Source: Eledone cirrhosa (taxonomy: Eukaryota). Taken from it: a stretch of 64,000 nt of DNA. Each line of letters begins with the position of its first letter. The stretch's first letter is position 1. The stretch lies in assembly GCA_964016885.1 (NCBI GenBank), contig OZ024761.1:27404001-27468000 (forward strand), in the 5' to 3' direction. The notes under the pieces were generated by a model, which worked only from the letters and a program-made list of their open reading frames with translations, had not been told where the DNA came from and did no database searches. Made by a program: the position numbers and the translations under genes. Below, in pieces: positions 19,756-23,613 of this stretch.

Positions 19756-22127
19756 AAGTTATATTTAAAATTGTTGGGTTACAACTAGTAAATATTTATA
19801 ACTGATATAAAAGCACTCGACAAATACTTGGAGTATATTTACAATATTAAATAAATGGAAAACTATATTTATAAAACCATATTTATTTCATTATATATAT
19901 TTCAGGGATATCATATTAACAATATGCTATGCCTTCCTCAGACAAAATACAATATAAACAGTTTTATAGATAAATAGATTTGACATACCGTAACAACATC
20001 GACTTGTATTTGAAAAGTTGAATTGGCAGTGAAAAGATTGTACACAGAGAGAAAGAAAGAGAGAAAAAAAGGAAAGAAAGACAGAAAACGAAGAAAAAGA
20101 AGAAAAAAGAAGAAATGCATGGAACAAAATAGAGAGATGGAAAGATAGATAAAGAGAAGAACTTCATGTAAAGAAACAGAGATATATATATATATATAGA
20201 GAGAGAGAGGAAATAGAGATAGATACATATATATAGAAAACTAGGTAGTGGGACGTCCGTTGAGTAAACGTATCAATGATACATTTATTTATTTATTTAT
20301 TTATTTAGCTCTAGTATTAATGTAAGGGAGATATATGTGGTTAGGATAGAAACCAGCTGTTATATAGAGAGAAAAATTAAAAATAACCAGACATAGGCGA
20401 GGCATAAAAACCCTATGTTTTAATGTAGAGGTATTAGTATGTATAAAATAAAAACCAGCCACTACATTGTAAATATCAGTATTCCTGAATGAGACATGTA
20501 TCCACAATGTGTGACAAGTAATGATCTTATGTTTAGTTTTTTTTAAAAATTCATATGTTTATGTGATAACTACAAACATCTATGTGAATTTACATGATCA
20601 ACTCTGCAAAGCCTAAGTTCACGGAAAACATTCTCATTGTGCTATAAAAATTTAAGTATACATATATGTGTATATATATACACACAGATATATATAGAGT
20701 CAATATTACTACTATTCCTGTCTTTACTCTACAAGATTAACTATCAAGCAGAAATAGAGAGCAGATTTCAATATACTAATAAAAACATAAAAATATATAT
20801 CAGAAACAAAACCAAAAAATAACAATAATAATAATAATAATAAGTAATAATAAAATAGAAAACTAAAAAATATTACGAAAGAATATTACATATTAAAAAT
20901 ATTACATATTAAAAATATTAAAATTAAAATATTAGAAAATACTACAATAATAAAAATAAACCACAAAGATCAACCCTTCAAAATTAATTGACAATATTGC
21001 CAAGTTCATTATAAGCATCAGAGTCGAAAAACAGATAAAGCCAAAAATTATTTATCAAATCGCATCTAGCAAAGATCATTTCAAAAAGTTTAGGATGCCC
21101 ATTTGGTCTACATGTGTTCTTATATTTAATATAGAAGTTTATCTAGTGTAACGTTTATTCGAAATATTTGGAGCATCAACTTTTAGGGTAGCTTAATTTT
21201 TCATGAAGAATGTTTAAATAAAAATAAAAATAAAAATAAAAAAGAATAAAAAGAAGAAATCAAAGATTTATCGGCTAGTTTCCCATATAATTATAAATCA
21301 AACTAAATATACTACATTTTAAATTTAAATTTATATTTAAACGTTGAGTTTAATCTATGTTTGCAGCAACTGAATAAATTTGTCCGTAGATTAAGGGAAT
21401 TTTTAGATTTTAGTATAAAGAATATCTCCTCTGCGCAGAGGTCACATGTCTCAGAGGATGAATTAAAAGGAATCCCTCTTGAGACTATATTCCAAGCCGT
21501 CGAATATCTAACGTTATCTAGCTTAAGTTGCCAGAGTACGCCTGATAGTGCCGTTGAAGATTTTTTGCTTGGATCTGTGAAAGAATTCTTGTGGTTATTA
21601 TAGCGAAGTTTAAATTCCGTCGATGTGGAACCGACGTAGTTAAAAGAATTAGAGTCAGTTTTAACATTACAATTGTATACTATATTTTTAACTAAGCAGT
21701 TGTTATTTAACGGACATTTAGATCTATCTCTACAGTTACATTTGTTAACTTGTATATTATTTATGCTATTATCACTAGGTTTTAAGTTCCTATTATTTAT
21801 TCTATTAATATTTTGTGCTAAATTTTTGGTGGATGAGTAGGTTAATTTTATTGTATGTCTATTGAAAATTGAGTGATACCTATGTGTTCTAGGGAAGCGA
21901 TTATCAAGAGCTTTAAAAACTGTTTATATTGTATTTCGTCCGAGGAAGGCACAGCACACTGTTAATATGACATCCCCGAAATACATATAACGAAACAAAC
22001 ATGGTTTTACAAATATAGCCTCCATCTACTTAATATTGCAAATACACTCCAAATACTTGTCGAGCGCCTCCATATCAGTTACAAACACCTACCAGCTGCA
22101 ACCCAACAACCTAAACACAACTTTCCA
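19752..22127 (-). mobile_element. 5'-truncated Penelope-like element (Naiad-like) with inverted 5' tail
   Basis: Minus-strand order: inverted tail (22127-21915), GIY-YIG ORF remnant, long 3' region, hammerhead motif (19884-19949, CTGAGGA...GAAA), tail, (TA)n. Confidence 0.85.
21312..21923 (-). pseudogene. PLE C-terminal linker + GIY-YIG endonuclease fragment (open, no start codon)
   Basis: Reverse complement of 23682-24293. Confidence 0.85.
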
Positions 22128-22229
22128 TATACATATATATATACACATATACACACATATGTATGTACGTGTATATATAATTATATGGTGTATTTACTGT
22201 GAACTGGATACACACAGCAATATGTACAC

Positions 22230-22264
<35 letters not shown>

Positions 22265-22282
22265 CACACATACATATATATA

Positions 22283-22487
22283 TAAGAAACTGTTCAAGAC
22301 CCCGACGGCAGAGCTCAAGCTGTCTCGACGGCCACCTCTGGACTCAGAGTCCAGAAATAGCCGTCGAAACAGCCCGAGCCCTGCCGCCGGGGTCAAATAT
22401 TTTCCTATTACCCACTCTACTACCCTAAGTATTGAGTACTCCGGTGCGTTATGGTCCACCTGGTTCCTTACCACACTTCCTTTGTTA
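22283..22487 (+). mobile_element. Short palindromic PLE-tail-like element, family P (T>C-altered copy)
   Basis: Homologous to 62083-62300, including the tail TATTACCCACTCTAC...GGTGCGTTATGGTCCACCTGG. Confidence 0.75.
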
Positions 22488-22944
22488 CATATATAAAAAA
22501 ATAAAAAAAAAATATATACACATACACACATATACACACACACACATATATATATACACATATATATATATATACACATATATATATATATATATAAGAG
22601 AGTATTGAAGTTTGCTTGATATTCAAAACAACGAACAGCGGAGGACGCGTTTCGCACCTTTCCGATAGACAACCTTTCCCCCACCCCGGAAAAAACCCCA
22701 GTTGATGGATATGAATCCGAAATATATAGGGACAATTAAATCTCTCCCAAGGTAACTCTCTCTCGTGTTGTTATTTTTATTTTATCCTTTATACTCTTTC
22801 CTTCATTCTTCTACACGTCTTATACACGCCACGCATCTCAACGTACACCCACTTACATCTCTCTCTCCACCACCGGATCTTGTTACCCGGAGATTTACCC
22901 ATTTGCATTGTCGAGGCTTCCAAACGACTTAAAGAAATCCACCA

Positions 22945-22991
<47 letters not shown>

Positions 22992-23198
22992 ATATAAGAA
23001 AATGAGGTTTTTTGACAAAAAAAAAGAAACAGATGTCCTACATGGATGAAAATATAAGGAAAAGAAATCGAAAATGCAACTGGTGTCTCTTTAAGAATAT
23101 TTATTTATTTCCTTTACCAGTTTCACAGTTTTTATGCTTTTCAAAAGTAGAATTGAGAAGGAGGGTCTGTGGTTTTTCTCGCATATATATATATATAT

Positions 23199-23392
23199 AT
23201 AGGAACGAGTAGGACCCCGACGGCCGAGCCCAAGCCGCCTCGACGGCTAATTCTGGTCCAGAACCAGCCGCCGAAACGGCCCGAGCCCAGCCGTCGGGTC
23301 CCACTCGCTCCTATTACCCACTCTACTACCCAAAGTATTGAGTACTTTGGTGCGTTATGGTCCACCTGGTTCCTTACCACATTTCCTTCGTT
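23199..23392 (+). mobile_element. Short palindromic PLE-tail-like element, family P (T>C-altered copy)
   Basis: Homologous to 62083-62300 and embedded in (TA)n. Confidence 0.8.
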
Positions 23393-23613
23393 ATATATAT
23401 ACACATATATATATATATATATACATATATATATACTCTTTTACCTGTTTCAGCCATCCGGCTGAGGCCATGCTGGGGCACCGCCCTTGACAATATATAT
23501 ATATATATATTGTTTTTCTCGTATTTATATATATGTACCCAGTCCACACTGTAAAGTGGCCGTGTAGGGTACATGGTAAAAAGCTCCCAGTCCACACTGT
23601 AAATGTGGTTGGT

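Follow-up and report, generated by a model that had tools for sequence, protein, structure and literature searches.

The window, the whole stretch of 64,000 nucleotides that we analysed (G000:C22:27,404,001-27,468,000, in the 3.0 Gb genome of Eledone cirrhosa), contains two long inverted PLE arms, at 19842-21991 and 23614-25765, and a spacer of ~1.7 kb sits between them. The arms lie head-to-head, and over ~2.15 kb they differ from each other by one substitution and one 2-nt microsatellite indel (99.8% identity). The features of this interval are as follows, where "edited" denotes the T>C changes described below.

19750..21915, minus strand: left PLE arm, 5'-truncated and Hydra-type by its motifs, with the ORF end including the GIY-YIG region, the 3' UTR and a pLTR with the long "tail" end; unedited
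21312..21923, minus strand: C-terminal 203 codons of the PLE ORF, with CxCx5C linker, YVG, CxxC and CxH; present in each arm
21916..21919, no strand: junction of PLE arm and edited pLTR, a 4-nt microhomology
21916..22128, plus strand: pLTR copy in inverted orientation, tail included, hyper-edited; the template RNA would contain it in antisense, its changes reading as A>G on the minus strand
22156..23617, minus strand: captured host sequence, colinear with G000:C21 ~6,230,200-6,231,911; its template RNA would be the minus strand
22200..22322, no strand: segment of ~124 bp that the assembled C21 copy lacks; the left arm of hairpin 1 falls within it
22298..22394, minus strand: hairpin 1, a palindromic repeat (self-inverted match), edited; 6 spacer-derived T>C at 22324-22380
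22619..22942, no strand: high-copy repeat (3170 candidates, 95-98% identity) holding the C-rich stretch 22800-22880; essentially unedited
22995..23184, no strand: second high-copy repeat, with 3 scattered spacer-derived T>C and 3 other spacer-derived changes
23202..23311, minus strand: hairpin 2, a palindromic repeat with a near-perfect stem of ~55 bp (z = -16), edited on both sides
23432..23495, no strand: fragment that is presumably SINE-like (so labelled in the earlier note), unedited; absent from assembled C21, which has a different block of ~510 bp there
23614..23617, no strand: insertion centre, a GTTA microhomology at which the captured sequence ends and meets the right arm
23614..23689, minus strand: inverted duplicate of 21916-21991, its 8 edits and PLE junction included
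23690..25765, plus strand: right PLE arm, unedited, ending in (TA)n at the short end (position 4134 of the sibling copy L087)

The left arm matches positions 2023-4227 of L087, a sibling elsewhere in the genome, and its outer end lies in (TA)n; 616 bp of it are 100% identical to several other genomic copies. L087 carries a single complete ORF of 737 aa, with RWR at 45, DKT at 126, YRDD at 360, CNCRDRSKC at 604, YVG at 638, CDLC at 702 and CKH at 729. Using motif definitions for Hydra-clade PLEs taken from PMC8557442, we read this as an RT followed by a C-terminal GIY-YIG region and assign the element to the Hydra type by motifs alone. A Pfam search returned no match for the PLE protein, either as the 203-codon arm ORF or as the L087 ORF, and the closest named relatives are from Argonauta hians (35-42% identity). 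The element has in common with the C-terminal EN+ PLEs of the Hydra clade, as described in PMC8557442, RWK-like, DKT, CxCx5C, CxxC and CxH motifs, a (TA)n target, inverted 5'-truncated copies and an optional tail at one end. Unlike them, its unit is ~3.8 kb long (L087 positions 286-4134), outside the clade's "generally under 3 kb", its tail is ~93 nt as against 30-40, and of a hammerhead it shows a core-like motif only. This motif occurs in 4 pLTR copies where 0 were expected, the pattern having been built from the sequence itself; an Rfam search found no hammerhead or other match at gathering score, and the pLTR fold was not significant.

The arrangement of the two arms follows a rule of the family. 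We compared 54 sibling loci which, having been picked by similarity to the window's arm, are young copies. Head-to-head pairs account for 48 of the 54 (18 of 20 in a first set and 30 of 34 in a second, two with a stub arm), each with one arm that terminates at the long end (L087 position 4227) and one that terminates at the short end (4134, 93 nt earlier). Among the remaining loci, four are single-armed or of a single orientation, one has a shortened second arm and one is joined to a different PLE family. The window conforms, its left arm having the long end and its right arm the short end, and both of its insertion ends lie in (TA)n, as do those of 11 of the 11 siblings displayed. Paired arms of siblings differ by 0-0.85% at private sites and have rare alleles in common, indicating one source per pair. 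Fold-back from a single cDNA was considered as the general mechanism of the family and rejected: neither arm is consistently the longer, and some loci have a stub with the long end. Work on the Anolis PLE Poseidon describes in vitro cutting and extension of both target strands, with starts at two sites (PMC11167929), and the window PLE is alike in that both strands appear to have been cut and extended and in that two RT start sites define the tail. Beyond what is described for Poseidon, the two ends are here paired, one per side, in those 48 insertions, and edits tie the inner arms to one molecule or one DNA copy of it. None of the 54 siblings has captured non-PLE sequence between its arms, so the capture seen in the window is rare.

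The earlier note, made from the letters of the window, had described a strand-specific T>C bias in three repeat copies of the spacer that their siblings at 39, 42.6 and 62-63 kb do not have, and comparison with these siblings and with genome-wide copies confirmed it. In the pLTR copy at 21916-22130, 33 of 88 T are replaced by C, with 1 other change, relative to the majority of 4 in-window siblings. Against L087, 21916-22128 shows 34 differences in 213 bp, namely 33 T>C (18/54 in the body and 15/32 in the tail) and 1 C>T. Genome-wide best matches give 28/69 T>C for this pLTR, where each of the 11 best copies has at most 3, and the closest other copy to it among the best 40 scored of 506 candidates is 83% identical. 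The hairpin repeat at 23190-23400 has 11/63 T>C and 1 other change relative to in-window siblings; for hairpin 2 the genome-wide best matches give 12/27 T>C and zero other changes, with at most 1 in each of the 19 best copies. The third copy, at 22280-22500, shows 12/61 T>C but also 20 other changes relative to in-window siblings because it belongs to a divergent subfamily; against its true paralogue on C21 it shows 8 T>C (7 of them spacer-derived) and 1 other change. T>C counts in the siblings themselves are 1 (39.1 kb), 3 (39.4 kb), 1 (62 kb) and 1 (63 kb), and the 42.6 kb sibling has 5 T>C versus 7 C>T and 4 A>G. A blind search for clusters of one change type, run on 102 sequences (211,377 assessable positions), flagged T>C or A>G in the spacer and its right-arm duplicate alone.

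The same search gave two windows with a weak C>T or G>A signal. Another 43 loci (135,463 positions) yielded 2 T>C clusters, which we rejected as editing, one being a subfamily difference and the other a microsatellite.

The bias does not extend over the whole spacer. The C-rich stretch and the SINE-like fragment had both been suspected of being edited as well, and neither suspicion held: T>C changes number 0/31 at 22790-22890 relative to 8 family copies, so that the C-richness is native to a high-copy repeat, and 0/17 at 23432-23495 relative to 9 copies. The high-copy repeat at 22619..22942 has 2 T>C, at the edge adjoining the (TA)n run, and in hairpin 2 the unpaired 3' part is spared. With the C-rich and SINE-like pieces free of T>C, the bias is restricted to double-stranded parts.

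An unedited donor-type locus with the same order of elements, for which the earlier note had proposed a genome search, was found on C21. Used as separate genome queries, the pieces of the spacer converge on C21 near 6.230-6.232 Mb, where the sequence is colinear with window positions 22156-23617, repeat-repeat junctions included, and carries the family T at edited sites. The C21 locus runs on intact past the point at which the spacer is cut off. Across 1031 aligned bases, microsatellites left out, the spacer differs from C21 by 33 T>C of 328 T versus 4 A>G of 282 A (p = 4e-6), and there are 17 non-T>C differences. When these differences were polarised with repeat-family copies as reference, 24 T>C and 7 other changes fell to the spacer lineage, with zero spacer-derived A>G on the plus strand, and 15 changes fell to the C21 lineage; 4 differences were left unpolarised. 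In 8 of the 33 raw T>C it is C21 that changed, from C to T, and these are not edits. The spacer microsatellites, which lie outside the 1031-base count, appear C-enriched relative to C21.

The assembled C21 copy has no PLE adjoining the shared part, is without the ~124 bp segment and the SINE-like piece, and has the extra block of ~510 bp; this block is not bounded by GT-AG on the minus strand, and different sequence occupies its place in the spacer. Because C21 is ~2% divergent, with indels and no PLE, far beyond the difference between the arms, the assembled copy is not the exact donor. The donor was, we infer, either a diverged allele of the C21 locus or a twin locus absent from the assembly. 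Only C21 matched the spacer's unique junctions among the best 40 scored matches per query in the assembly, and no closer donor was present among these. For a host gene near the donor, a Pfam search of 18 of 52 candidate frames gave 0 convincing matches.

Read on the minus strand, the changes are A>G, a single type on one strand. The left-arm ORF lies on the minus strand, which is thus the sense strand of that arm and the strand of its template RNA; the edited strand is therefore the one that the flanking PLE arm used as RNA template. In the predicted fold of the C21 sequence, A was changed at 18/69 sites in or beside helices of at least 8 bp and at 7/208 elsewhere (p = 2e-7; C21-derived sites dropped, one unpolarised site retained). 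G is depleted 5' of edited A, at 3/26 versus 48/128 in the polarised set (p = 0.011) and 5/22 versus 49/94 in the unpolarised set (p = 0.017), and depletion of G 5' of the edited A is described for ADAR hyper-editing (PMC4365171). A 3' G accompanies 13/20 edited A versus 41/96 in the unpolarised set (p = 0.09), and this enrichment is absent after polarising with a wider site set (8/24 versus 43/130, p = 1). As far as sequence can tell, the spacer changes are an ADAR signature, and their patchiness is what ADAR would produce. The antisense pLTR would have formed its duplex with some sense pLTR. As the tail is edited too (15/32), this partner must have borne a tail, and a candidate is the sense pLTR at C21:6,252,592-6,252,837, 22 kb upstream on C21. 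The proposal that the whole ~1.7 kb spacer is a copy of one edited transcript thus gained a colinear source on C21 and the traits of ADAR action, and has to be qualified in that the editing is patchy and confined to double-stranded parts.

We consider it very probable that edited RNA was written into DNA by this Hydra-type PLE. Somewhat more specifically, the spacer is probably a reverse-transcribed copy of ADAR-hyper-edited RNA that was captured mid-insertion in one recent head-to-head PLE insertion. The left product reads, in order, long end, PLE to position 2023, 4-nt microhomology, antisense edited pLTR, (TA)n, C21-type sequence, GTTA. The right arm begins at this GTTA with a second copy of 76 bp of the edited pLTR, in which all 8 edits and the junction to the PLE recur. 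Eight of 8 edits in common are not expected of two independently edited RNAs, so the inner arms come from one molecule or one DNA copy. The sense pLTRs of the two arms are unedited (1 A>G among 78 A in the left, none in the right), and the edited pLTR differs from the arm's own pLTR by 4 non-editing differences in ~215 bp. These observations fit a switch onto a second RNA better than read-through, and we favour the former.

For the route itself, a template switch within the broader reading, we see an even chance. A C21-type locus, either another allele or a twin absent from the assembly, would have been transcribed on the minus strand; its microsatellite probably contained the end of a young PLE. 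Editing would have affected the hairpins of this RNA as well as its antisense pLTR, which would have been paired with a sense pLTR of some copy. Starting from priming at the left target end, RT would have copied ~2.2 kb of unedited PLE RNA, switched to the edited RNA at the 4-nt microhomology and copied 1.7 kb of it, reading I as G. The inner right arm would then have been copied from this first product, by fold-back at GTTA/TAAC or an equivalent step, and joined to a second priming event at the short end. The pLTR part and the C21-derived part may also come from different RNAs, joined at the (TA)n run.

The strongest competitor, which we hold to be possible and on balance unlikely, does away with the template switch: a donor allele that already held a head-to-head, tandem PLE centred on the 21916 junction would have given one long read-through RNA (flank, antisense pLTR, sense PLE) that was edited and then copied twice, from two start sites. 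In its favour, sibling pairs in which one arm is short (L086, L088) have a centre that looks like the 21916 junction, several copies are tandem (L072, L084, L085, L087, L090), and a single such RNA would explain the common junction and edits without fold-back, in keeping with paired arms coming generally from one source. However, in a read-through RNA the antisense pLTR would pair with the sense pLTR 2 kb away and both would be edited, which the unedited sense pLTRs contradict, and the 4 non-editing differences between edited and arm pLTR stand against the 0-0.85% seen in sibling pairs. The suggestion in the earlier note that a PLE had mobilised edited RNA from its upstream flank is borne out in that the spacer's flanks are two arms of one PLE insertion and the edited strand matches the arm's RNA strand; it is upstream read-through that, for the two reasons just given, fits less well.

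A scheme in two rounds, which we find doubtful, would have an earlier retro-copy fix the edits and the junction elsewhere, with its unedited transcript then serving as the single template for both arms. It accounts for the identical edits in the arms and for the unedited sense pLTRs, and also for there being 7 non-editing changes in the spacer lineage versus only 1 substitution between the arms. Against it, a second edited locus was not found among the best 40 of 506 pLTR candidates or the best 40 of 2714 hairpin candidates, the junctions matching only C21, and the edited pLTR has only 1 non-T>C difference from a young copy. Two rounds would still require the same ADAR and RT event, one step earlier.

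Duplication of the C21 segment at the DNA level, followed by a burst of changes of non-ADAR origin (error-prone synthesis, deamination of ssDNA, GC-biased conversion, or CpG decay in the comparison copies), is very unlikely. Microhomologies at both junctions are also compatible with DNA template switching, and the 8 raw T>C that are C>T in C21 are what such an account allows; after polarisation, however, the 24 T>C stay and spacer-derived A>G number zero. Neither gene conversion nor CpG decay distinguishes between the strands. If adenosines of the cDNA strand had been deaminated, the changes would lie on the opposite strand, and the changes follow RNA helices and the ADAR 5' neighbour rule. 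An assembly or polishing artefact, whether a false inverted duplication or RNA-derived sequence in the assembly, would give arms 99.8% identical, as observed, but is very unlikely since the arms end at two different family-specific ends and differ by one substitution, the same architecture recurs in 48 of 54 siblings, the C21 copy is unedited and the 8 edits are present in both orientations. A search of the assembly for an empty site gave no second copy of the right flank junction.

The reading of the spacer as edited RNA fixed in DNA has a close precedent in avian retroviruses, where A-to-G hyper-editing (Rous-associated virus U3, avian leukosis virus inverted repeat) was fixed by reverse transcription, as summarised in PMC12925331. 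As in the spacer, an inverted-repeat region there carries ADAR-type A>G clusters, which affect as many as about half of the adenosines. What sets the spacer apart from these viruses is that the copied RNA was for the most part host sequence of a different chromosome and that the enzyme was a PLE RT; the product belongs to an animal reference genome that also contains an unedited paralogue. Host DNA framed by pLTRs and head-to-head inverted structures, like those of the window, are described for Penelope elements of the rotifer Adineta vaga, for which self-priming and template jumps have been proposed (PMC3846280). In our spacer, by contrast, the scars reveal that an RNA was the intermediate and which strand it was, and the captured piece is flanked by the 5' ends of two arms; the portion of PMC3846280 available to us makes no mention of editing scars in the Adineta vaga captures. 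Reports of A-to-I hyper-editing of repeats in RNA likewise describe clusters in inverted repeats with 5' G depleted (PMC4365171), and repeat-directed editing is widespread across squid tissues (PMC9068888). The spacer differs from such reports (PMC4365171, PMC9068888) in that its edits are in genomic DNA and the 3'-G enrichment is unconfirmed. The available portions of PMC2873906 and PMC5974252 contain no comparable case. A literature search covering mostly open-access main texts turned up no case in which a PLE had fixed ADAR-edited host RNA in DNA.

The ingredients of this event are thus known, and what is unusual is an edited capture with an unedited source-type locus for comparison. Cephalopods are a group with heavy editing of repeats, and the spacer would offer a single-molecule record of A-to-I editing in a cell that, given its presence in the assembly, contributed to the germline, with the unedited C21 copy to set beside it. 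It would provide direct evidence, strand included, that host sequence captured by PLEs passes through RNA, and the edits that the two arms have in common limit the ways in which head-to-head PLE insertions can arise. The insertion has no evident function, being a single case within non-coding repeats. More tentatively, and with the odds leaning against it, the active PLE family of the Eledone cirrhosa genome might repeatedly carry nascent host RNA, edited by ADAR, into germline DNA, with the edits serving as a barcode that shows both arms to derive from one molecule. If so, such insertions would preserve a record of how RNA is edited in the germline and could be a source of sequence variants that arrive already edited.

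The window carries further repeats, and a motif in the terminal repeat (pLTR) of its Penelope-like element (PLE):

62085-62298, 63274-63505 and 42573-42693: high-copy palindromic repeat
18908-19352 / 26597-27041: further inverted repeat pair around the PLE insertion, 95-96% identity
14208-14690 / 27107-27588: further inverted repeat pair around the PLE insertion, 95-96% identity
19900-19941, 25666-25707, 39250-39291 and 39423-39464: pLTR motif resembling a hammerhead core (CTGANGA, stem, GAAA)

We read the two inverted pairs as separate dispersed copies. The palindromic repeat forms a perfect stem that reaches 67 bp, carries a fixed 3' tail and is flanked by (TA)n runs; it is a natural ADAR substrate and possibly a non-autonomous PLE-type end. 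The repeat at 22619-22942 is also high-copy (3170 candidates), is often found as head-to-head pairs, and may be another PLE pLTR; within it, a stretch near 22690-22730 looks, on visual inspection, like a variant hammerhead core. Rfam did not recognize the hammerhead-core-like motif in the four pLTR copies. Two of these copies lie in a short pLTR pair at 39101-39613, which is head-to-head, has the tail on both arms, and comes from a slightly different subfamily.

Among sibling loci of the family, the second arm has shrunk to a stub of ~12 nt at L138:3344, which still terminates at the family's short end, and to one of ~15 nt at L148:7397, which still terminates at its long end. L134:1415-1596 and L158:1058-1240 have in common an identically placed insertion of ~180 bp in the 3' UTR, which marks a PLE subfamily. 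From L150:4030 onward (contig G000:C5, ~85,853,000), the young arm's 5' end is joined head-to-head to sequence that looks like the endonuclease region of a different, GC-richer PLE family, possibly reflecting two RNAs within one insertion or an older element hit by insertion.

In 48 of the 54 young insertions (L071-L090, L131-L164), two arms are paired head-to-head, one finishing at the long and the other at the short of two fixed 3' ends that lie 93 nt from each other in the family sequence, and rare alleles are common to both arms of paired insertions. Together, this pairing of ends and these common alleles provide genomic support for two-sided priming from a single source in this PLE family.
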